From contig OZ252098.1 of assembly GCA_965248355.1 (NCBI GenBank), positions 2,656,001 through 2,720,000 of the forward strand: a DNA stretch of 64,000 bases. Direction: 5' to 3'. A program made the translations under genes and the position numbers. Below the pieces are notes generated by a model, which saw only the letters and a program-made list of their open reading frames with translations, was not told where the DNA came from and ran no database searches. This stretch comes from Candidatus Latescibacterota bacterium (GTDB lineage Bacteria; Latescibacterota; UBA2968; UBA8231). This document shows, in pieces, positions 4,433-25,822 of the stretch. The stretch's first letter is position 1. Each line of letters opens with the position of its first letter.

Positions 4433-5773
4433 CACCCGCCTCGTCGGCGTACCGCAGTACCGTGACATCTATGGAACCGGCATCGGCAACGGCAATTCCG
4501 ACCGGCCACCCCTCTTGCAGGAACTCAATGTCTTTGAAGACACCGTGGCGGCCCTGGCCGCCCGTATTGCGCCGGGTCCGATGGCCTTCGACCGGCAGGG
4601 GCGGCTCTACTTCGTCGACTATGTCGATGCTTGGCAGCTCTTCTTGCACAGCAGCGACTACTCGAAGGTAGTGGCGCGCATCGCTCGCGTGGAGACCGAT
4701 GGGCGGGTGGTCACCTTCGCCGGTCCGGCGGCATTCGGTGGCATAGGTTCGCTGGTCTTCGATGTCCAGGGGGATCTGCTGTTGTCGGGCTATGGAGGGA
4801 TCTGGCGCATCGACGACCAGGGAGGTGTCTCAGGCCCCATGGGGCCACCTGGGCGAGGATCCCTGCAGATGGATGACCAAGGGAGACTGTACTTCCGGAC
4901 CCGTACCCAGGTCTTCCGCCGTCATCCCGACGGCACGATCGAACACCTGGCTGGGTCGGCTTGGGACGACCGCAGGCCATGCGTGAAGCCGCGCTGGAAG
5001 GAGAGGGGGCGGAAGAGCGCCCGGGCGGGTACTATGTCGCCAATGGCGCTCCGGCGACCGAGGCTCCGCTCCACTTTACCTCGGCCTTGGCTCTGGACTC
5101 GGACGGGTCGCTGTATGTGGCCAATTGGTACTTCAACCGCATCCATCGGGTCCGTCCCGACGGCGTCATCGAGACCGTCGCCGGCAACGGCCTGGACTTC
5201 ATGAAGTCACCCGGTTGTGCGGCGTCCGAGAAGCGGGTGGCCGGGGCCGTATCCGTACCCCGATGCCTGGACAATATCGGCGACGGCGGCTCGGCGCTGG
5301 AGGCCTCTATCTGGCATCCCGGTCCGCTGCAGATGACGCCGGACGGCGATCTCCTGGTGGCGATGGAGAAGGGAGGATTCATGTGGGCGGGTGGAGATGT
5401 CTCCCACCTGCGCCGCATCTGCCGGGTCCGCGAGTGGATGGTGGCCACGGCGGTGGAGGCGGTCGAGGAGGTGCCTGCGAATGGCGCCGAAGAAGTACTA
5501 CCCTCCGTGCGCCTGTGGCCGAATCCCTTCAATGCCTCTGTCACGGTCGCCTTCGAGTTGGACCACCCGGCTTCCGTATCGGTGCGGGTCTACGACGAGC
5601 TGGGGCAGCGGGTGCGGGTGCTGGCCGCGGAGGCGGAACGCCCGGTGGGCTCCTACCAGTTCGTCTGGGACGGGCTCGACCAGGCGGGGCGGCTGCAGGC
5701 CTCGGGCACCTACTTTCTGGTGGTCTCGGTCGATGGGACGCCCGAGAGCCACAAGCTGACCCTGCTGCACTGA
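4110..5773 (+). pseudogene. Secreted NHL/beta-propeller repeat protein with FlgD tail; frameshift near 4970
   Basis: Signal peptide and NHL-like repeats (LAVGPQGRVHIAD; LALDSDGSLYVANWYFNRIHRV..ETVAGNG). ORFs 4110..5204 and 4961..5773 join by a 1-nt shift. Confidence 0.75.
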
Positions 5774-6094
5774 GGGACGGAAGGCGATGGCAACCCGTCT
5801 CCACGGCCTCCTCGCCTTGTGGTGGCTTGCCTTGGCGGCCCCGGTGGGGGCGCTGCCGCCGTGCGGGGAGCCGGGCACGATCAGCACCGTGACCGCCCCC
5901 GATGGGGGCGACTACATAGCGGCCTTCAGCGGCTACAAAGTCTACCCGCCGCAGGACGTACCCGGCTTCCGGGACGGGGCGGCCGCGCCGGAGTACCGCA
6001 GTCACCATCCGCGGTACCTGGCCGTCGGCCCCGAAGGGCGCGTCCATGTCGCCGACTGGACCATCATCTACCGTTTGGAGGCCGATGGCAGCGC
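5522..6094 (+). repeat. Direct repeat copy B
   Basis: See copy A at 3846-4432. Confidence 0.9.
5787..6094 (+). pseudogene. Truncated paralog of the 4110 secreted protein
   Basis: Same N-terminus MATRLHGLLALWWLALAAPVGALPPCGEPG. It is cut at the IS630 left end and similarity does not resume after the IS. Confidence 0.8.
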
Positions 6095-7266
6095 TAGTGT
6101 CGCGTCCGACAAATGAGTTGTAAAAACAGAGTCAAGGCCTTATCTTCAGGCCATGGCCCGCCCGGTGTCCCGCCTTGAGTTGACCGCGTCCGAGCGACAG
6201 GAGTTGGAGCGTCGCGTCAGGGCCCCCTCCGCGTCCCAGCGCGACAGCCTGCGCGCGGCCATCGTCCTGCGCCGGGCCGAAGGGATCAAGCAGGTGCAGG
6301 TGGCCGCCGAGTTGGGCGCCAGTGTGGCGTGTGTGAACAAGTGGTCGCAACGCTTTGATCGCGAGGGTTTGGCGGGACTGAACGACGCCAAGGGCCGGGG
6401 CCGGCCGGCGAGCTTGCCGGCGGACAAGGTCGAGCAGGTCCTCACCGCGGTCACGCAGCCGCCGAAGCCGCGCACGCGCTGGAGCGTGCGCTCGATGGCC
6501 CAGGCGGCGGGGATGTCGCCGGACAGCGTGCACATCTGGAAGGCCAACGACATCAAGCCCCATTTGACCAAGACCTTCAAGGTCTCCACGGACCCGCACT
6601 TCGAGGAAAAATTCTGGGACGTGATCGGGCTCTACCTGGATCCCCCCGAGCGCGCGCTGGTGCTGTGCTGTGACGAGAAGAGCCAGTGCCAGGCGCTGGA
6701 ACGGACCCAGCCGGGCTTGCCGCTGGGGATCGGCGACATCCGCACCCGGACCCACGATTACAAGCGCCACGGTACGATCACCTTGTTCGCCGCGCTCAAC
6801 TACCTCGACGGCAAGCTCATCGCGCGTCTGGAGGCGCGTCATACCCACGTCGAATGGCTCCGCTTTCTCAAGCAGATCGACCGCGAGACGCCCAAGAACC
6901 TGTCGCTGCACCTGATCGTGGACAACGCCGGCCCCCACAAGGAGGAGAGCGTGCAGCATTGGTTGTCTCGGCATCGGCGCTTCCATGTCCATTTCACCCC
7001 CACCAGTTCCTCCTGGATGAACTTGGTCGAACGGTTCTTCGGCGAGCTGACGCAGGATGTGATTCGGGACGGCAGCTTTGCCAGCGTCGGGGAGTTGGTG
7101 CGCGACATCGAAGCCTACTTGGCGCAGCGGAACTTGGCCCCCAAACCCTACCGCTGGAAGGCCGACGGCGAGACCATCCTGCGCAAGATCCAGCGCGCTC
7201 GGGAGACGGTGGCGGCGACATCGGACAGCCCTTGTTGATTCTTCTTAATTCTCGGACGGGACACTA
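6095..7266 (+). mobile_element. IS630-family element
   Basis: IRs tagtgtcgcgtccgac / ctcggacgggacacta. TA duplication within a CTAG target. Confidence 0.9.
6153..7238 (+). CDS. IS630-family transposase
   Basis: HTH N-terminus plus CCDEKSQCQAL, THDYKRHGT, IVDN and PTSSSWMNLVERFF motifs. Confidence 0.93.
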   Translation: MARPVSRLELTASERQELERRVRAPSASQRDSLRAAIVLRRAEGIKQVQVAAELGASVACVNKWSQRFDREGLAGLNDAKGRGRPASLPADKVEQVLTAVTQPPKPRTRWSVRSMAQAAGMSPDSVHIWKANDIKPHLTKTFKVSTDPHFEEKFWDVIGLYLDPPERALVLCCDEKSQCQALERTQPGLPLGIGDIRTRTHDYKRHGTITLFAALNYLDGKLIARLEARHTHVEWLRFLKQIDRETPKNLSLHLIVDNAGPHKEESVQHWLSRHRRFHVHFTPTSSSWMNLVERFFGELTQDVIRDGSFASVGELVRDIEAYLAQRNLAPKPYRWKADGETILRKIQRARETVAATSDSPC

Positions 7267-16878: not shown

Positions 16879-17619
16879 TCAGGCCTGCAACTCGCGAAGG
16901 GCGGCGGCGCCGATGGGCGCGATGCCCAGCTCGGCGCCGGCCTCCATGAGGATGTCCCAAACGTAGGCGCCCTGGGCGCGCCCGCCGAGCACGCGAAAGG
17001 CGGGCAAGTCTCCGGCATCGGCGCGCACCACGAGGGCCCTGACGCGGGCCACGCTGGTCTCACGCGCGCGGCGGTCCGGGAAGGCGTCGGCGTCGAAGTC
17101 GAGGCCGCAGACCTTGCTCAGCAGCCGGGGCGCCTCCGGGCCGACGATGCGGTACTCGAAGCGGCCGTGGGTGACGTCGGTGACGGTCACCAGGCCGGGG
17201 GCCTCGGCCGCGGACTCTTCCAAGGCGGCCAGGACCGCTTCCCCCTCTCCGGGGCCGGCGGCCACGAGCAGCAGGTCGGGCCGCAGCCGGCAGGCGGTCA
17301 CCCGGGTCCCGCTCACCTCGCCCAGACGGGGTGCAGGCGAGCCGGTGGCGGCAGCAACCACCCCGGCCGCCTCCTCGCCCATCCGGGGCTCCGTCAAGCC
17401 CGTGGCGGTGGAGACCACCGGCCCGGCCCCCTCGCCCTGCACGAGCAGCTTGGCCCGCGGCGTCTCGTCTCCGAGAGCCACGCCTTCGCGCGCTGCCCGC
17501 TCCTCCACGGCGCCGTCGCCGAAGCGCTCGGGCACGCGCCAACCGCCCACCTCGGTCAGGTGCGCGTCCATTGCCTGCCAGCGGCCGTGGAGGGGGGTCG
17601 CGTACCAGGGACCCGCCAT
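16879..17619 (-). CDS. soxG: Sarcosine oxidase gamma-like / NMG dehydrogenase subunit D
   Basis: VTDVTHG..GPEAPRLLSKVCGLDF motif. Last subunit of the B-D-A-G order. Confidence 0.72.
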   Translation of the reverse strand: MAGPWYATPLHGRWQAMDAHLTEVGGWRVPERFGDGAVEERAAREGVALGDETPRAKLLVQGEGAGPVVSTATGLTEPRMGEEAAGVVAAATGSPAPRLGEVSGTRVTACRLRPDLLLVAAGPGEGEAVLAALEESAAEAPGLVTVTDVTHGRFEYRIVGPEAPRLLSKVCGLDFDADAFPDRRARETSVARVRALVVRADAGDLPAFRVLGGRAQGAYVWDILMEAGAELGIAPIGAAALRELQA

Positions 17620-20597
17620 CAGCTGCGCAGCCTCTCGCCGGCGGGATCGTAGAACGCCCCGTGGTGCACGCGCCCCTCCTCCAGGCGCCCCCCGGCGTAG
17701 ACGGTGAAGGGGGCGCCTTCCTCCGAGGCGAGGCCGGCCGGCAGCCAGCAGAGGCCGATGACGCCTCCGAGGGTGGGCGAGCGCCGGCAGGAGGTGATGA
17801 AGCCGATGATGTCGAAGCCGCCCCCGGACCGGCGGGTGACGATCTGCAGTCCCTCCTCGACGGCGGCGTCGTCGCGGGTCATGCGGAACCCCACGAGGCG
17901 CTGCTTCGGGCCGGTCTCCGCCACCCGGGTCAGGGCCCGCTTCCCGAGGAAGTCCTCCTTCTCCAGCTTGACGGCCCAGCCGGAGTCGGCGGAGATGGCG
18001 TCGGAGAGGGCATCCGTGTCCTGGCCGACGATCAGGTGGCCCTTCTCCAGGCGGAGGATGCGCTGGGCCTCGACGCCGAAGGGGCGGATGCCGTGCTCCT
18101 CCCCGGCCTCCATGAGCGCTTCCCAGAGATACGCCCCGCCGCCCGCCGGGCCGTGGATCTCGTAGGACCGCTCGCCGGTGAAGCCGATGCGCAGCACCAG
18201 GCAGGAGAGGCCGGCGATCCTCGTGCTTCGGGCGCGCATGTAGGGGAACCGGGCCTTGGACAGGTCGCGGGAGGTGAGCTTCTGCAGCACCTCGCGAGAG
18301 GCCGGGCCCGCCAGGTTGACGGCGGCCCGGGCCTCGGTGAGATCGGTGACGTGGACGCCGTCGCCCCAGCCGGACTGGCGCCACCACTCCACCCACTCCA
18401 GGGCCCCGGCGGCGCCGGTGGAGGTGGTGCTCACGTACCAGTCGTCGTCTCCCAGGCGGGCGCAGACGCCGTCGTCGAGGATGACGCCCTCGTCGTTGCA
18501 CATCATGCCGTAGCGCACGCGGCCCCGGCGCAGGTCCCGCCAGGAGTTGACGTAGAGGCGCTCCAGCAGGTCGGGCACGCCCGGCCCGGTGAGGCGCAGC
18601 TTGCCGAGGGGGCTCACGTCGATGAGACCGACCGCGTTGCGCACCGCCGCCACCTCCTCGGACGGGGGGCCGTAGCGCTCGGGCCGCAGCCAGGTGCCGG
18701 CGGTCATCATCCGGGCCCCGCGGGCCACGTGCCAGTCGTGCATCGCCGAGAGCTGCACCGGCTCCATCTTCTGGCCGGCGAGGGCCCCCAGGGAGACGGG
18801 CGTCGCCGGGGGCCTCGCCGTGGTCCGTCCCGTCTCCTGCACCGAGCGGCCGGTGCCGCCGGCGCACAGGCGGATGCCGTGGAGGTTGCACATGCGCCCC
18901 TGGCAGGGGCCCATGCCGATGGTGGTGTAGCGCTTCAGCAGCTCCAGGTGGTCGTAGCCCTCGGCCAGGGAGGTCTCCACGTCGACGTCGGTCACGTCCT
19001 CGCACAGGCAGACGAAGCGCTTGCCGCCGCCGCAGGCGGGAGCGCTGACCAGGGCGGAGGAGTGGGAGGCCTCCCCCGGCGGATCCCCGGCGGCCTCGGC
19101 CTCCCCGGGCGGATCCCCGGGCGGATCCCCGGCGGGGGCCTGCGGGCTGTCCTCCAGGGCCTGGCCGGCTTTCGCGGGGTCTGCGTCCGGGGCCCGGCCG
19201 GCCTTCGCGGGGTCCGCGCCCAAGGCGTGGGTGGCCGCGGCGGCTCCCGCCCGGCGGCCGTGCTCCTCCTCGGCCGCGACCGGTCCCTGCCGGCCGGCGA
19301 CCCGGCCCGCGAGGAACACGCCGTCCGGGAGGTCCACCACCCGAATCTCCCTGTGCTCCTCGTCGTAGCGGCTGCCCGCCCCCGCCATCCAGGCGAGCTC
19401 CGCCGAGGGCTGCCGCCCGGTACTGACGGCGACGAGGTCGCAGCGCACCTGGCGCCGCGAGCCGGTCCCCGAAGCCGGCACGAGCACGGCCTCGCGCACC
19501 CGGCTGCCGCCCCGGGCGGCGCCGATGGTGTACCCGGTGAGCAGCTCGGCCCCGGAGGCGGCCAGGGCCTCCGCCCCGGGAGGCTCCACCCCCTGGCGTT
19601 CGTCGGCCACGGCGGCGACCTCGATCCCGGCGGCCAGCAGGTCGGCCGCCACCTCCCAGCCGCCGTCGTGGGCCGTGACCACCACCGCCCGCCGGCCCGG
19701 GGCCACGCCGTAGAGCCGCAGCAGCCGCTGCACCGCCGTGCCGAGCATGACCCCCGGCCGGTCGTTGCCGACGAAGAGCGGGGGGATCTCGTGGGACCCG
19801 GTGGCCACCACCACGGCGCGGGCCCGGATCTTGAAGAGCCGGTGGCCGCGCACCGCCGACAGCCAGTGGTCCTGGTACCAGCCGGTCACCGAGGTGCCGG
19901 TGATCACCTCCACGCCGGCTCGGGAGAGTCGCTCCGCGGCGGCGTCGAGATGGCCCTGCGGCGCCGGACCGCTGAAGCGCAGGTGTCCGCCGAGGGCGGG
20001 GTTCTCGTCCATCAGCAGCACCCGGGCCCCGCTCTCCCGGGCGGCCAGGGCGGCGCTCATACCGGCGGGACCGCCGCCGGCGACGACCACGTCGGCGTGC
20101 AGGTACTGCTTGTCGTGCTCCCCCTCCGGCGTCTGCTCGTCGACGGTGCCGAGGCCGGCCGCCGTGCGCAGCACCCGGTCGTACAGGGGCCACAGCCGCC
20201 GGGGCCGGATGAAGGTCTTGTAGTAGAACCCGGCGGGCAGGAAGCGGGAGACCCACTCCGTCAGGGCCATGACGTCGAGCTTCAGCGACGGCCAGGCGTT
20301 CTGGGGCCGCACCTCCATGCCGTCCTTCAGCGGCTGGAGGCAGGCGCGCACGTTCGGCTCGGAGCCCACCTGGACCAGGCAGTTGGGGCAGTGGCCGGCG
20401 CAGCACAGCAGGCCGCGGGGCCGGTGGTACTTGAAGGAGCGGCTGAAGACGGAGACCCCGGCCGCGGCCAGGGCCGAGGCGATGGTGTCGCCGGCGCAGC
20501 CGCTGTAGTCGCGGCCGTCGAAGCGGAAACGCAGGCTGCGCCCGCGGTCCAGGATCTCTCCCGGACGCGGGTCGATCCGGTGGGCGGATCCGCTCAT
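17619..20597 (-). CDS. soxA: Sarcosine oxidase alpha-like / NMG dehydrogenase subunit C
   Basis: SRSFKYHRPRG, GGGPAG, ELLKRYTTIGMGPCQG and a GcvT-like folate domain. Confidence 0.88.
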   Translation of the reverse strand: MSGSAHRIDPRPGEILDRGRSLRFRFDGRDYSGCAGDTIASALAAAGVSVFSRSFKYHRPRGLLCCAGHCPNCLVQVGSEPNVRACLQPLKDGMEVRPQNAWPSLKLDVMALTEWVSRFLPAGFYYKTFIRPRRLWPLYDRVLRTAAGLGTVDEQTPEGEHDKQYLHADVVVAGGGPAGMSAALAARESGARVLLMDENPALGGHLRFSGPAPQGHLDAAAERLSRAGVEVITGTSVTGWYQDHWLSAVRGHRLFKIRARAVVVATGSHEIPPLFVGNDRPGVMLGTAVQRLLRLYGVAPGRRAVVVTAHDGGWEVAADLLAAGIEVAAVADERQGVEPPGAEALAASGAELLTGYTIGAARGGSRVREAVLVPASGTGSRRQVRCDLVAVSTGRQPSAELAWMAGAGSRYDEEHREIRVVDLPDGVFLAGRVAGRQGPVAAEEEHGRRAGAAAATHALGADPAKAGRAPDADPAKAGQALEDSPQAPAGDPPGDPPGEAEAAGDPPGEASHSSALVSAPACGGGKRFVCLCEDVTDVDVETSLAEGYDHLELLKRYTTIGMGPCQGRMCNLHGIRLCAGGTGRSVQETGRTTARPPATPVSLGALAGQKMEPVQLSAMHDWHVARGARMMTAGTWLRPERYGPPSEEVAAVRNAVGLIDVSPLGKLRLTGPGVPDLLERLYVNSWRDLRRGRVRYGMMCNDEGVILDDGVCARLGDDDWYVSTTSTGAAGALEWVEWWRQSGWGDGVHVTDLTEARAAVNLAGPASREVLQKLTSRDLSKARFPYMRARSTRIAGLSCLVLRIGFTGERSYEIHGPAGGGAYLWEALMEAGEEHGIRPFGVEAQRILRLEKGHLIVGQDTDALSDAISADSGWAVKLEKEDFLGKRALTRVAETGPKQRLVGFRMTRDDAAVEEGLQIVTRRSGGGFDIIGFITSCRRSPTLGGVIGLCWLPAGLASEEGAPFTVYAGGRLEEGRVHHGAFYDPAGERLRS

Positions 20598-20679
20598 GCC
20601 CAACCCTCCCGGGCGCCGCTGTCGCGGCTGGAGGGGTTCACTCGCCGCTCCCGGGCACCGCCCGCGCGGCTGGAGCGGC

Positions 20680-20964
20680 TCACCCGGCGCTCTCCGTCCC
20701 GGCGGTGTCCGGGGACCACGGGAAGGTCCGGGACACGGCGTTCGTGCGCCGGTCGCGCTCGGCCAGGAACCACAGGCCGCAGCCGGCACGGTGGAGCCAC
20801 CACTCGCGCCGCGGGCCCATAGGGTTGTCGCGCAGGTAGAGGTAGTCGTGCCACTCTTCGTCGCCGGCCTCCATCGAGGGGGAGGGCCGAGGCCGGTGCT
20901 CGCCGCCGTAGTGGAACTCGGAGACGTTGCGCTCGCCGCAGTGGGGGCAGGTCAGCAACAGCAC
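20680..20964 (-). CDS. soxD: Sarcosine oxidase delta-like subunit
   Basis: CPHCGER..EF.YGGE, YLYLRDNP and H..GC motifs. Confidence 0.88.
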   Translation of the reverse strand: MLLLTCPHCGERNVSEFHYGGEHRPRPSPSMEAGDEEWHDYLYLRDNPMGPRREWWLHRAGCGLWFLAERDRRTNAVSRTFPWSPDTAGTESAG

Positions 20965-20965
20965 G

Positions 20966-22198
20966 TCAGTGGCTCACCGAGGCGGCGCCCTTCTCGCCCA
21001 CCGGATCGAACTCGGCGAAGCGGGACAGGCGGAAGGGATGGATGAGGTCGGGGGTTCGGCCGGTGGCGATCAGCTCGGCCAGGGTCTGGCCGCAGATGGG
21101 CGAGGCCTTGAAGCCGTAGGTGCCCCAGCCGGCGTCCATGAGGAAGCCGTCCACCGGCGTGAACCCCATGAGGGGGCTGTAGTCGGGCGGCATCTCGCAC
21201 AGGCCCGCCCACTGGCGCAGGATGCGGACCTGCGACAGGAAAGGGAACAGCTCCAGCACGTGCCCCGAGAGCCCCTCGAGGAAGTCGAGGGAGCCGGCCA
21301 TGGAGTAGGAGGTGAAGGGATCGACGCTGGCCCCCATGACCAGCTCGCCGCGGCCGGACTGGCTGATGTAGACGTGCAGGGAGCCGGAGACGACGACCAC
21401 GTCGAGGAAGGGCTTGAGGGGCTCGGTGACGCAGGCCTGGAGGGGGAACGTGTCCAGAGGCAGGCGCAGGCCGGCCATGGCGGCCAGGTTCGAGGCCCAG
21501 CCGGCGGTGGCCGACAGCACGGTCCCGGCCGAGACGGGGCCCCGCGTGGTGCGCACCCCGGTGACGGCGCCGGCGGCCACGTCGATGCCGGTGACCTCGG
21601 TGTACTGATGGATGTCGACGCCGCGCTCGTCGGCGCCGCGGGCGTAGCCCCAGACGACGGCGTCGTGGCGGATGATGCCTCCGGGCGGATGGTAGAGGGC
21701 GGCGTGGATGGGGAAGCGCGGGCGGTCGGAGAGGTCGAGTTGCGGGCAGATGCGGTCCAGCTCGTCCGGGAAGACGAGGCGGGAGTCGACGCCCTCCAGG
21801 CGGTTGACCTCGGCGCGGCGGCGCATGGTGCGCACCGAGCCGTCGTCGTGGGCCAGGGTGAGGTGGCCGCGCCGGCTGAACATGACGTTGAAGTCGAGGT
21901 CGGCGGCCAGCCCCTCGTAGAGCTCGAGGCTGGCGTCGTAGAAGCGCACGCCCTCCGGCGTGAGGTAGTTGGAGCGCAGGATCGCCGTGTTGCGCCCCGA
22001 GCCCCCGGAGCCGATGTAGCTCTTCTCGAGGACGGCCACGTCGGTGATGCCGTGGTCGCGGGCCAGGTAGTAGGCGCAGGCCAGACCGTGGGCGCCGCCG
22101 CCGATGATGACGACGTCGTAGCGGTCCTTCAGGGGGCGGTCGTGCCACATGCGCCGGGGGCTGGCACCCAGGCCGTGGCGCAGCAGTTCGAGGGGCAT
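20966..22198 (-). CDS. soxB: Sarcosine oxidase beta-like / NMG dehydrogenase subunit A (FAD)
   Basis: GGGAHGL, GRNTAILRSNY and GWGTYGFKA motifs. Confidence 0.88.
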   Translation of the reverse strand: MPLELLRHGLGASPRRMWHDRPLKDRYDVVIIGGGAHGLACAYYLARDHGITDVAVLEKSYIGSGGSGRNTAILRSNYLTPEGVRFYDASLELYEGLAADLDFNVMFSRRGHLTLAHDDGSVRTMRRRAEVNRLEGVDSRLVFPDELDRICPQLDLSDRPRFPIHAALYHPPGGIIRHDAVVWGYARGADERGVDIHQYTEVTGIDVAAGAVTGVRTTRGPVSAGTVLSATAGWASNLAAMAGLRLPLDTFPLQACVTEPLKPFLDVVVVSGSLHVYISQSGRGELVMGASVDPFTSYSMAGSLDFLEGLSGHVLELFPFLSQVRILRQWAGLCEMPPDYSPLMGFTPVDGFLMDAGWGTYGFKASPICGQTLAELIATGRTPDLIHPFRLSRFAEFDPVGEKGAASVSH

Positions 22199-22285
22199 AC
22201 GGTGGCGCTCCGGCGCGGATGTGCACGGGAGAAGGGCGATAAGATGTGCAGCCCGAGGGGTGGCCGCCAAGGGGTCTCGCCGCCG

Positions 22286-23720
22286 GGTAGTGGCTCAGTT
22301 TGAAAAAACTTACCCAAACGGCATGAAAAAGCCGCTCACCAATCGGGAAGCGGCCCGTAACTCGTAAAGGGTTGAGTCTGGGGGCTATTCGGTCGAGGGG
22401 TAAACCCGCTGCCTCCGGTGGTGGCGGGGACCAGCCAGTAAATTCAAGGCCGCAAGGTGGCCTTGATGCGGGCCCAGGTAGTGGACTCGACGGCTGTGTC
22501 CGATCCCACCAGGATACCGTGTACGAATACATCAACCTCGTCCCCTGGGCCCGGGTCCTCTGGAATGTCATGCAAGTAGAACTGACCACTCCCTCTGTCG
22601 TCGTGGTCCCAATCGAAAACACCCAGGATGAATCCCATGACCTGGCCGGGTTCGAACGTGGAAATTTCGCTTCCGTCGGGATCGGACTGGATCATGCGAT
22701 CGAAGGCCGTGACGTAGAACTCGACAGTCCACAAAGCGGTTTCGTCGTCCAGGACAGAGCCCGCTCCAAATGCGTAGGGAAGTTCGACGACCCAGTCGCT
22801 GTCAGCGACGTACGGAAACCCTACTAGACCCCACCGATCTGAGTAGGGTTTGACCTCGTAATACTGAGCATGGGAATTATTCCTCGGGAACCTTCCGCCA
22901 GAATGGTCTCCGTCCACCATCAGGGCGACGTGATCGGACAGCTCGTGAAAACGGCTATCGTCTGTGTTTCGGTACACGTCATCTGAAGCCTCGATGGCGA
23001 CGTACACCTTGCCGTGGTCGGACCAAGCCATCCAGGCGCGGAAATCCAGGTTTGCGGGATCGTATTCGCCGTGCGGCGGATCGTAGTGCCAGGACAGTTC
23101 GAAGTCGAGCCGCGTCACGATGGGTTCCCCGAACAGGTCTTTCCAATCAGCCAGATCACCATCCACAGTCAACTGGTCCGCGGATACGTAGGGGATGGAG
23201 AATACTCGGTCTCCCACGTGCGCGCTGGCCTGGGTTGATAGGATTTCCAGCAGCAGCACCAAGACGATCACCATGAGTCCCTCCTGTCGAACAGCTCGAC
23301 CACATCGGCCAAATGACAAGTGTTCTTCAGACGCTTCGACGCTTGATACCGCTCCGAAGTTTCGACCCCGACCATAACCCGTAAGCCCAGATTCCTGCCC
23401 TGCGTTGGACCCGGCGGCTGAAGCAAAGACCTGTTTTGCCGAGCACCAGGAAACGTCCGTCTGTCCTCGCCAACCACGAAACCCGAATCCAACGCTTGGA
23501 GGCTGCTGTCGGATGAGCAAGGGACGACTGTCCTGGACAGGTTACAAAGGAGCAACGCCCGCCGATATAGGCCGGCGTTGCTGCGTAAGAAGTCGCCCAA
23601 GGCCACCCAGACCGCTTTCCGAACATAGCGCCACTACGTGCTGCATCTGCTGCAAAGTGTCGCTGCGCGATGGTCCCGGCTCCGGCAGCAAGAAAGCTTT
23701 TTTCAAACTGAGTCACTACC
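22286..23720. mobile_element. Non-autonomous mobile cassette with IS1-like ends
   Basis: IRs ggtagtggctcagtttgaaaaaa / ttttttcaaactgagtcactacc. 8-bp TSD cgccgccg at 22278-22285 and 23721-23728. No transposase inside, and visibly lower GC. Confidence 0.85.
22444..23274 (-). CDS. Secreted protein, DOMON/CBM9-like, with C-terminal TAVESTTWARIK motif (cassette passenger)
   Basis: AGGAGG RBS and signal peptide. VDGDLADW, VYVAIEASDD and DGDHSGG motifs. Confidence 0.7.
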   Translation of the reverse strand: MVIVLVLLLEILSTQASAHVGDRVFSIPYVSADQLTVDGDLADWKDLFGEPIVTRLDFELSWHYDPPHGEYDPANLDFRAWMAWSDHGKVYVAIEASDDVYRNTDDSRFHELSDHVALMVDGDHSGGRFPRNNSHAQYYEVKPYSDRWGLVGFPYVADSDWVVELPYAFGAGSVLDDETALWTVEFYVTAFDRMIQSDPDGSEISTFEPGQVMGFILGVFDWDHDDRGSGQFYLHDIPEDPGPGDEVDVFVHGILVGSDTAVESTTWARIKATLRP

Positions 23721-23822
23721 CGCCGCCGCCCGCCGGACATCCTCCCCGGCGCCGGTACGGCCGGCGGCCGAGCTTGCCGGCCCCATCCCCCTTGTGCAAC
23801 ATCAGCCTCGGAAGACGCCGAG

Positions 23823-25822
23823 ATGCCCTCACCCCGCTTCGACCGCAGCCTGCTGCCGCCGGCGGACCTCGAGTTCGTCGTCGTCTCCGACACCCATTAC
23901 ATGATCGACGTCGGCGACGCGCCGCTGGAGTTCGAGTCGCGCCGCCGCCAGGGCGAGCGGGCCGGCGCCGCCTGGCGCGCCATCGCCAGCCTCGACCCGG
24001 CCTTCGTCGTGCATCTGGGCGACATGGTGCAGGAGTTCCCGGGCCGTCCCGACTACGACCGCGCGGTGGGCGAGGCCCTCGGCCAGATCCACGCCGCCGG
24101 GCTGTGGGAGCGCTGCCGCTTCGCGGCCGGCAACCACGACATCGGCGACCGGCCCGATCCGACCATGCCCACGGGCGAGACCACGGAGGAGAGCCTCGAT
24201 ACCTGGGAGCGGAGGCACGGAGCGTCCTGGCGCACCTGGGCCGCGGCAGGGATCCGCTTCCTTGTGCTCAACTCGCAGCTGTTCAACACCGGCCTGGCCG
24301 CGGCCGCCCGGCAGCGTGCCTGGTTCGAGGCGCAGCTGGTGGAGGCGGGTCCCGAGCCGTGCGTCCTGTTCCTGCACATGCCGCCGTACCTCAGGGACCC
24401 CGGCGAGCCCTGGCTCGGCCACTACGACAACCTCGGCGAGCCGGACCGCGGCTGGCTCCTCGACCTGGTGCGCCGGCACCGGTTCCTCGCCATGTTCGCC
24501 GGCCACGTGCACTTCCAGTTCTTCGATCACGTGGCCGGCGAGGCCGGCCTCTGCCGCTACTACGTCACACCCTCCCCGTCGTTCACGAGGCCCGGGTTCT
24601 CACACCTCTTCACCTCGGCCCCGCCTCCGGAGCAGGGCCGGGACGACGCGGAGAAGCTGGGATTCTTCCTGTGCCGGATGGCTGGAGGCCGGCTCGACGT
24701 TCACCGCGTGCGAATGGCGGCCCTGCCGGCCGCGGGCGACGGGTCCTGCCTCATCACTCCGCTGCCGGCCGCCTCCGGGCCGGGGCAGGACGGAGCTCGT
24801 TTCGGCACCGGTCTCACCCTGCGCCACGCCTTGGCCCCCCAGACCGACGTGCCCCTGGCCTGGCCGTCGGTGATACGTCAGCCGGTGCGCAACGACTACC
24901 CCCTGCTCGCCTGTCTGGAGATGGGCGCTTCGTGGGTGCGCACGCCTCTGGCCGACCTGGCGGACCCGGTCCAGGGCCGGCGTCTCGACCTGCTCCGCGC
25001 CGAGGGGGTCCGCGTGCAGGCCGTCGCTCTCGGCGAGGAAGAGGCCCTCGCCCACGCCGCCGATCTCGCTGGTGCGGATGCCCTGGAGGTGCAGTTGCCC
25101 GGGCGCGTCCTGCCGGACACTCGATCTCTGGCGGCGCACCGCCCCTGGTGCTCGCTCCCGTGCTGCCGGGCCAGCCGGTGCCGGGAAAGCAGCACCACCG
25201 CACGCGGATCGGCTTCTCGCCCGACGAGCTGGACGGCCTCGGCGAGGCCCTCGAGGAATCGCACCTGACGGCCGCTGCCGCCTGCCGGCTGGATCCGGCG
25301 GACCCCTGGAGGACGGCGAGGCGCCTGGAGCAGGCCCGCGGCCGGAGACCGCAGCAGCTGCAGCTGCTTGCCGAGCTGCCCGGCGTGGACGACGGGACCA
25401 ACGCCAAGGCCGTGGCGCGCGCCCTGCTGGCGGCGGCGAGTCTCGACGTACGTCTCTTCCTCGAGCCGCTGGTCGACATGGACCGCACCATGGACGTGGC
25501 CCGGGGCCTGCTGGACACACGCTGCAACCCGCGCCCCCCCTTCGAGGTCGCCCGCTGCCTCGCGGCGCTGTTGCGGCGGGAAGCCGGCAGACCGGTGGCC
25601 GTCTCCCGGCGCGGGCCCTGCGAGATCGCCTCCCTTGGAGATGCAGCCTGCCTGGTGATCGCCGACGCCGGGCCCGTCCGTCTGGGCGACGTGCTGGACC
25701 CGCCGCCCCTGGGCCCCCTGTGGTCGTGCCGGCTCGCGGCGGGCGCGGTGACCACCTTCGATCCGCGAAGCGAGTTGACGCCGGAGGACGGCCCCCTGCT
25801 GGTGTTCCGCCGCCCCGACTGA
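23823..25822 (+). pseudogene. Calcineurin-like metallophosphoesterase with long C-terminal region; frameshift near 25135
   Basis: SDTH, HLGD, GNHD and AGHVH motifs. Coding-like sequence continues in the 23405..25822 frame (PPLVLAPVLPG..). Confidence 0.65.

Follow-up and report, generated by a model that had tools for sequence, protein, structure and literature searches.

Insertion sequences (ISs) of the IS1 family have short terminal inverted repeats (IRs) with a GGnnnTG-type terminus and produce a target site duplication (TSD) of 8-9 bp, and classic IS1, at less than 1 kb, encodes its transposase in two overlapping frames, insA and insB', joined by a -1 frameshift. Bacillus cereus MIC231 is an example of a mobile insertion cassette (MIC), and the cargo-carrying transporter ISs were reportedly introduced by Siguier et al. 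in 2009. In this work, we characterize a 1435-bp element of a Candidatus Latescibacterota bacterium, located at positions 22286-23720 of a 64,000-nt window of its genome (contig OZ252098.1, positions 2,656,001 to 2,720,000; coordinates are those of the window unless a contig is named), in which two IRs enclose a single cargo gene whose product is termed P0001. MICs, MITEs (miniature inverted-repeat transposable elements) and solo IRs are defined in the ISsaga paper (PMC3129680) as derivatives of ISs, and MITEs, MICs and transporter ISs are categories already named (PMC3129680, PMC7986276, PMC4611040). An earlier reading of this DNA from its letters alone (hereafter, the sequence-only reading) had invoked non-autonomous passenger cassettes known among IS derivatives, and this kind is indeed described, under the name MIC, in the ISsaga paper (PMC3129680).

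We consider it very probable that the window element is a non-autonomous IS1-family derivative, namely a MIC, moved most likely by a transposase supplied in trans. As in other MICs, IS-type terminal IRs and a TSD accompany a passenger gene unrelated to transposition, no transposase is encoded, mobilization would have depended on a cognate transposase acting in trans, and the element is of a sort usually absent from annotation; gene callers and IS annotators overlook such elements, which offer no transposase to be detected. It differs from them in its parent, which would be an IS1-family group, in its host, an uncultured high-GC bacterium, and in having no active partner in the genome. A literature search, far from exhaustive, turned up no account of a MIC from the IS1 family. 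MICs being a known kind, the element is new as one that derives from an IS1 group, occurs in this lineage and has a cargo with a predicted fold like that of family 9 carbohydrate-binding modules (CBM9), and the general understanding of such elements is unchanged by our findings. What the locus offers is a clean case of a non-autonomous IS derivative bringing in a complete foreign gene, with both ends, the TSD, the empty site, partner elements and sister copies at hand.

The element is a genuine insertion. Its two IRs differ from each other at 1 of 23 positions, a match that none of 100 dinucleotide-preserving shuffles of the window reproduced, and the TSD copies outside them are identical (Table 1). 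The GC content is 0.56-0.61 inside the element versus 0.70-0.77 in the flanks (about 0.58 versus 0.72). All the anatomical features that the sequence-only reading had reported were recovered, that is, 23-bp IRs with one mismatch, an exact 8-bp TSD at both ends, a size of 1435 bp with lower GC, a single intact gene with a ribosome-binding site and a putative signal peptide (an AGGAGG and a hydrophobic N-terminus, modeled as a helix at residues 2-17), and the absence of a transposase. Regarding the latter, neither P0001 nor two other open frames tested had any Pfam match at E <= 0.1, and tblastn of three cognate transposases against the element gave a best E of 0.45. The first ~155 bp of the right arm, immediately upstream of the cargo gene, are conserved with a copy in the congener G075. 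The terminator-like hairpin is weak evidence by itself, as the scan yielded 1 site versus 1.7 expected in shuffles; RNA folding in the 3' region of the cargo gene was unexceptional (z -1.18), and a blastn search of the element against PLSDB plasmids gave no match.

Table 1. Features of the element and its flanks in the window, followed by elements of other genomes bounded by the same IR.
Feature	Position in window	Strand	Length	Details
Left TSD copy	22278..22285	.	8 bp	CGCCGCCG; read from sequence; related single octamer in congeners G068, G073
Left IR (IRL)	22286..22308	+	23 nt	GGTAGTGGCTCAGTTTGAAAAAA; matches group consensus GGTAGTGnCTCAGTTTGAAAtt
Terminator-like hairpin 3' of cargo gene	22315..22338	-		T-run runs into the A-run of IRL; consensus scan
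Cargo gene, P0001	22444..23274	-	276 aa	Intact; stop codon included; ATG at 23274, stop at 22444-22446
Shine-Dalgarno-like AGGAGG	23280..23285	-		5 nt upstream of the cargo ATG; read from sequence
Non-coding right arm	23275..23697	.	423 bp	Holds a 16+16-nt palindrome, 23551-23582; no transposase remnant
Right IR (IRR)	23698..23720	-		GGTAGTGACTCAGTTTGAAAAAA; read from sequence
Right TSD copy	23721..23728	.		CGCCGCCG; exact match to left copy
Host gene on the left, FAD-dependent oxidoreductase (DAO family)	20966..22270	-		Pfam PF01266, E 1.3e-70
Host gene on the right, metallophosphoesterase-domain protein	23823..25268	+		Pfam PF00149, E 3.6e-10
L028			3372 bp	TSD AGCAGCTT; encodes a DDE_Tnp_IS1 protein
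L030 (genome G013)			2146 bp	TSD GAAAAAAG; encodes a DDE_Tnp_IS1 protein
L040			2895 bp	TSD AAAAATCG; encodes a DDE_Tnp_IS1 protein
L042			1689 bp	TSD CGCCCTCG; transposase fragments
L035			3730 bp	TSD GAATTATG; transposase-free
L019			903 bp	TSD CAATTTTT
L034			1654 bp	TSD 7/8; transposase-free
L017			1207 bp	TSD 7/8

The uninterrupted site was observed in relatives, as the sequence-only reading had suggested looking for. The two flanks adjoin each other in 4 of the 9 other species of the genus (G068, G073, G074 and G075), with 91-94% identity, and the alignments of G068 and G073 run across the junction with one octamer only, which in G068 reads CGTCGCCG. A contig from sequencing run X6 joins 22235 to 23810 via 136 other letters and represents an element-free relative; bins of X6 and X7 without contig cover were not counted as absence. 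Run X1, which may derive from the source sample, shows 0 differences in its contig over 22100-24200.

The same ends recur well beyond this genome. When 75 other genomes of the taxonomic family were scanned for the IR at <= 3 mismatches, 25 matches were found in 18 genomes, versus 2 for a reversed-IR control, and the IR GGTAGTGnnTCAGTTTGAAA was found at the borders of elements with 8-bp TSDs not only in related genomes but also across many other phyla and on a plasmid of Mesorhizobium loti. A wider scan with the pattern GGTAGTGNNTCAGTTTGAAA, using one genome per species, returned at least 129 stretches, and flanks were taken for 80; by record title, the taxa included Acidobacteriota, Alpha-, Beta-, Gamma- and Deltaproteobacteria, Verrucomicrobia, Chloroflexia, Binatia, Chitinophaga, Mucilaginibacter, Actinomycetes and a Mycobacterium. 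Among the matches listed, 46 distinct convergent IR pairs with sufficient flank were recognized, with an exact 8-bp TSD in 24 and at least 7/8 identity in 32, as opposed to 0 of 46 for control 8-mers taken 20 nt further out; a looser flank requirement gave, again among the matches listed, 33 pairs at >= 7/8, 25 of them exact. The consensus of 86 element ends is GGTAGTGnCTCAGTTTGAAAtt, with no conservation further inside, and the conservation of the ends is partly by construction because the search pattern selected one end per pair. These results bear on an alternative in which an ordinary gene, acquired horizontally, happens to be enclosed by an inverted repeat without any transposition. Nothing specific favors it, other than the GC richness and low complexity of the target octamer, in a genome with 72% GC, and we rejected it as having a negligible probability, given the shuffles without a single IR, the precise empty site with its single octamer, and the same IR bounding TSD-flanked elements in dozens of genomes with an excess of exact duplications over the control.

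The ends of the window element belong to an IS1-family group. The cognate transposases encoded by L028, L030 and L040 match DDE_Tnp_IS1 (PF03400) with 36.6, 41.1 and 46.3 bits, respectively, versus a cut-off of 24.1, and their best NCBIfam match is the IS1 model NF033558, while the IS1595 model gives 17-21 bits only. A cultured representative is provided by the M. loti plasmid (CP050295.1), where GGTAGTGGGTCAGTTTGAAAT closes a 3370-bp element on either side; its TSD is CGCTGGTG, and it holds a gene annotated as 'IS1 family transposase' together with three other genes. The IS1-family assignment guessed in the sequence-only reading is thus borne out by elements sharing the IR and the 8-bp TSD. 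The group resembles IS1 in its ~22-23-nt IRs, its GG...TG terminus (GGTAGTG in the window), its 8-bp duplication and its matches to the Pfam and NCBIfam IS1 models. It departs from classic IS1 in that its transposase is a single open frame of about 284-300 aa (276-344 aa) instead of insA/insB', which fits a single-frame subgroup, and in that its full elements span 2.1-4.8 kb with cargo, rather than less than 1 kb, and remain under the NCBIfam cut-off. A different IS was noted 21 bp inside a GGTAGTG-type IR, at positions 906-2135 of locus L038 (G051:C1:2240846-2249210); it measures 1230 bp, has 27-nt IRs (GGTCGTAACGTGAGATTATCTCAGACC) and encodes a transposase of 372 aa, which in its N-terminal part shares 35-38% identity with residues 13-154 of the query transposase; similar copies account for ~10-12 matches in each of the genomes G051, G053 and G042.

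Cataloguing what lies between IR pairs, a further suggestion of the sequence-only reading, allowed us to sort 42 elements, of which 33 came from the wide scan and 8 from the family, the last being the window element. Nineteen, of 2066-4790 bp, encode a near-full-length transposase; in one the transposase is interrupted and in three it is partial; 11 are transposase-free and at least 600 bp long, including the window element; and eight are transposase-free miniatures of 154-304 bp. All 19 elements with a full transposase, as well as the M. loti copy, carry 1-4 extra genes between their IRs and are transporter ISs, of which the window element, having lost or never had a transposase, is the non-autonomous counterpart. 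When 113 open frames from 35 elements of at least 500 bp (M. loti copy included) were clustered, the transposase formed the only large cluster (24 members), the others having 2-4 members or being singletons. Pfam matches of the cargo included HTH with Peptidase_M78 (4), P63C (3) and SocA/Panacea (2), along with Fic, MazF/PemK, RelE, NYN, a STAND NTPase, a methylase-HNH fusion, an SDH-type protease, a proteasome-like protein, RibD_C and DUF4440; one match to an IS66 transposase probably reflects a nested IS. Within the family, L034 carries an M48 peptidase and L035 a 1056-aa protein with a type IX secretion system (T9SS) sorting domain. The annotated cargo of the other elements is mostly of toxin-antitoxin or defence type (loci L058-L137 and L205). 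One transposase-free element from a metagenome-assembled genome of Acidobacteria subdivision 13 (L068, positions 5001-6434) has a length of 1434 bp, nearly equal to that of the window element, perfect 20-nt IR cores and the TSD GGCGCTAG; its cargo is unrelated and has no Pfam match.

We tentatively put forward, as a possibility that falls a little short of being the likelier outcome, that these elements form a cross-phylum guild of IS1-type 'gene haulers'. Its members would share near-identical ~22-nt ends in Acidobacteriota, several proteobacterial classes, Verrucomicrobiota, Chloroflexota, Binatia, Bacteroidota, Actinomycetes and the present lineage; every full-length copy seen hauls variable cargo, mostly toxin-antitoxin or defence-type, and the guild would spawn MITEs and transposase-free cassettes and, in this lineage, transfer genes encoding tail-tagged surface or secreted proteins from one genus to another. 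For the mobile-DNA field, this wider by-product may matter more than the window element itself, as an IS1-type group with near-invariant ends over many phyla whose autonomous copies, in every case seen, carry cargo.

The relatives of the cargo gene provide information on its earlier travel. The closest are a metagenome protein, P0002 (85% identity), and homologues in the congener G075 (70%) and in G013 and G011 (65% and 57%), two members of genus g9 of the same family; matches at E <= 1e-40 occur in just 5 of 76 family genomes, G000 (the source genome of the window) included, and a metagenome scan with P0001 yielded distant relatives only, at 24-43% identity in 6 loci. In G075, a sister cassette (L188, G075:C6:314841-318671, ~1482-2486) forms a ~1.0-kb island with a GC content of 0.59-0.64 versus 0.71-0.77 in the background and is 76% identical at the nucleotide level to positions 149-1144 of the element; the island opens with GGTAGTG precisely at the left junction, has an internal deletion after that, and lacks its right end. 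G000 is uninterrupted at the site of this island (C1:~2203015), each of the two species being empty at the site that is filled in the other, which indicates that the gene has moved with these ends more than once and with no transposase alongside. In G013, a right-type IR (GGTATTGGCTCAGTCTGAAAT) lies 128 bp upstream of the start of the homologue, matching its side in the window, and no left IR was found beside the homologue; this genome also hosts the full-length L030, whose right IR differs from that of the window at 4 of 23 positions. No IR at <= 6/20 mismatches was detected beside the G075 and G011 homologues, G075 keeping only the first 7 nt. The decayed G075 cassette and the one-ended G013 copy lend partial support to movement of the cargo gene as a unit, and the low GC content together with the nearest relatives points to a foreign gene probably imported from a lower-GC relative, genus g9 being the best candidate seen.

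With regard to how the element arrived, DDE-type transposition into the intergenic region between the DAO and metallophosphoesterase genes would have duplicated 8 bp of target. The cassette retains two ~22-nt IRs recognized by the transposase, its single cargo gene taking the place of the transposase gene, and the enzyme would most likely have been supplied in trans by a full-length, cargo-carrying element with the same IR. Such trans-mobilization is plausible because the eight miniature and ten other transposase-free elements of the group have TSDs. It competes with decay in place, in which a complete transporter IS, comprising the transposase and this cargo, inserted itself and later deleted its transposase. 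An ancestor of that composition is to be expected from the cargo found in every full-transposase element, partly deleted transposases do exist in the group (L042, L099, L108 and L124), the 423-bp right arm is left unexplained, and positions 23464-23506 weakly match (43 nt, 81%, E 5e-5) the region upstream of the L030 transposase in G013. However, the window element holds no transposase remnant, the G075 and G013 copies also lack an adjacent transposase, so that the transposase-free layout is probably older than the insertion, and the eight TSD-flanked miniatures suggest that trans-mobilization is routine in the group. Because the gene travelled repeatedly without an adjacent transposase, we rank trans-mobilization above loss in place, which we regard as unlikely.

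Several observations weigh against our interpretation of the window element as an IS1-family MIC moved in trans. In its own genome (G000; 5.50 Mb in one contig, 95.7% complete), the IR search recovered the window's pair as the sole one (<= 3/23 and <= 4/20 mismatches), and no intact cognate transposase is present: the PF03400 profile gave nothing over its cut-off, and tblastn with three cognate transposases identified a single locus, C1:21240-21689, ~50% identical to approximately the first 160 residues (13-166 of the 284-aa L040 protein). This relic, in a patch with a GC content of 0.57-0.69, proves to be frameshifted when its three frames are read and has lost the C-terminal part, and no IR core lies near it within 19.0-24.5 kb. 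Transposase matches (E <= 1e-15) occur in 20 of the 75 other family genomes, including 3/3 in genus g9 and 13/31 in g13, and, with this query, in 0 of the 9 other genomes of the own genus. That no active partner was found in the genome or, with this query, in the genus weighs against trans-mobilization here; a plasmid bearing the transposase could be absent from the 95.7%-complete assembly. In addition, the element occupies the identical site in contigs of three samples from three studies, and a single copy at a constant site gives no sign of current mobility. One of these contigs, from run X5 (another sample and study), carries the element with 9 substitutions and lacks 23682-23718 (37 nt), so that IRR is gone except for its last 2 nt, and an additional G follows 22482, within the part of the cargo gene that encodes the tail; the deletion and the additional G could be errors because the depth is 2.7 in a single contig. 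The 37-nt joint recurs in an X6 contig of 151 nt, and the depth over these contigs is low (2-3). The cognate transposases reach only 63-79 bits versus the NF033558 cut-off of 100. Finally, no sigma-70-like promoter was found in window 22000-24000, a negative that is uninformative because the organism may rely on other promoter types. Since the own genome has no working transposase, the cassette is stranded at present, and its past mover may have been a now-broken copy, the transposase of transient incoming DNA, or a replicon absent from the assembly.

The cargo protein is predicted to adopt a CBM9-like fold. An AlphaFold2 model built from a 37-sequence alignment (mean predicted local distance difference test score 80.5, predicted template modeling score 0.80) comprises an N-terminal helix, a beta-sandwich and a low-confidence C-terminal helix (265-273), and its top Foldseek matches in the PDB are CBM9 modules (7nwn, E 1.3e-10; 7nwo, 1.9e-9; 1i82_A, 3.6e-9) with target TM-scores of 0.72-0.73, followed by lower matches to DOMON-like haem-binding subunits and cytochrome domains. 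In the nearest ESM-Atlas clusters, PF06452 occurs in 13-100% of members, these being commonest in Latescibacterota, Gemmatimonadota and Poribacteria. At the sequence level, P0001 matched nothing in Pfam (E <= 0.1, PF06452 CBM9_1 included) or NCBIfam, and a profile of 37 homologues found nothing related among PDB chains, its sole match at E <= 1 being an unrelated ribosomal protein (E 0.087). P0001 thereby differs from known CBM9 modules, as it also does in being a stand-alone protein of secreted type, not a module of a glycoside hydrolase, and in carrying a short lineage-specific C-terminal tail. Secretion, sorting by means of this tail and sugar binding are putative roles of P0001.

The 'TWxxIK' tail described in the sequence-only reading is real, with its wording corrected to AVE..[ST]W[GA]x[IVL]KA; in P0001, the C-terminal tail ends ...AVESTTWARIKATLRP. 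Among 15,646 own-genome open frames of at least 150 aa, 37 have [ST]Wxx[IVL]K within their last 25 residues, most of them following AVE..SWGRIKA and a few being evident chance matches, and the motif occurs elsewhere in those frames only 24 times; the tail is lineage-specific. Many exported-looking proteins end in the corrected form followed by 2-6 residues, with arrays at, e.g., C1:2865362-2869184 and 2921979-2932250. A tblastn search of the own genome with P0001 gives 23 further matches (E <= 0.01), twelve of them at ~2e-20 or better and several in tandem arrays, but all are only 23-40% identical; the close relatives of P0001 lie in other genomes, as described above.

On this basis, the broader proposal of the sequence-only reading can be assessed, namely a dedicated system of trans-mobilized cassettes that shuffles the tail-bearing secreted proteins of the lineage around the genome. 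The transposase-free, TSD-flanked insertion with IS1-type ends stood, with congeners empty at the site; the genome-wide shuffling found little support. Three members of the P0001 subfamily are associated with group ends, in three genomes and two genera, and the cargo proteins of L035 and L034, both transposase-free, are of exported type. Against this, a single IR pair in 5.5 Mb leaves 0 of the 23 paralogue matches between such IRs, no intact transposase is available, no second P0001-like gene was met in the cargo of 43 elements, and the annotated cargo is of other types, as described above; we consider such a system very improbable. The IS1-family MIC illustrates a specific way in which this uncultured lineage can draw from relatives new members of its large family of CBM9-like, tail-bearing surface proteins.

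The element sits in the common intergenic region of the divergent DAO and metallophosphoesterase genes, in the 5' region of the former and ~88 nt upstream of its first in-frame ATG (22198), and could therefore affect the promoters of both. An RNA family search of 21500-24500 gave, as its sole match, a sub-threshold Guanidine-II riboswitch outside the element, at 24039-24084 (-) inside the metallophosphoesterase gene (19.7 bits versus 32, E 0.61), which is probably due to chance. On the other side, window 16879-22270 is occupied by long minus-strand open frames, including one of 1056 aa, up to the DAO-family oxidoreductase.

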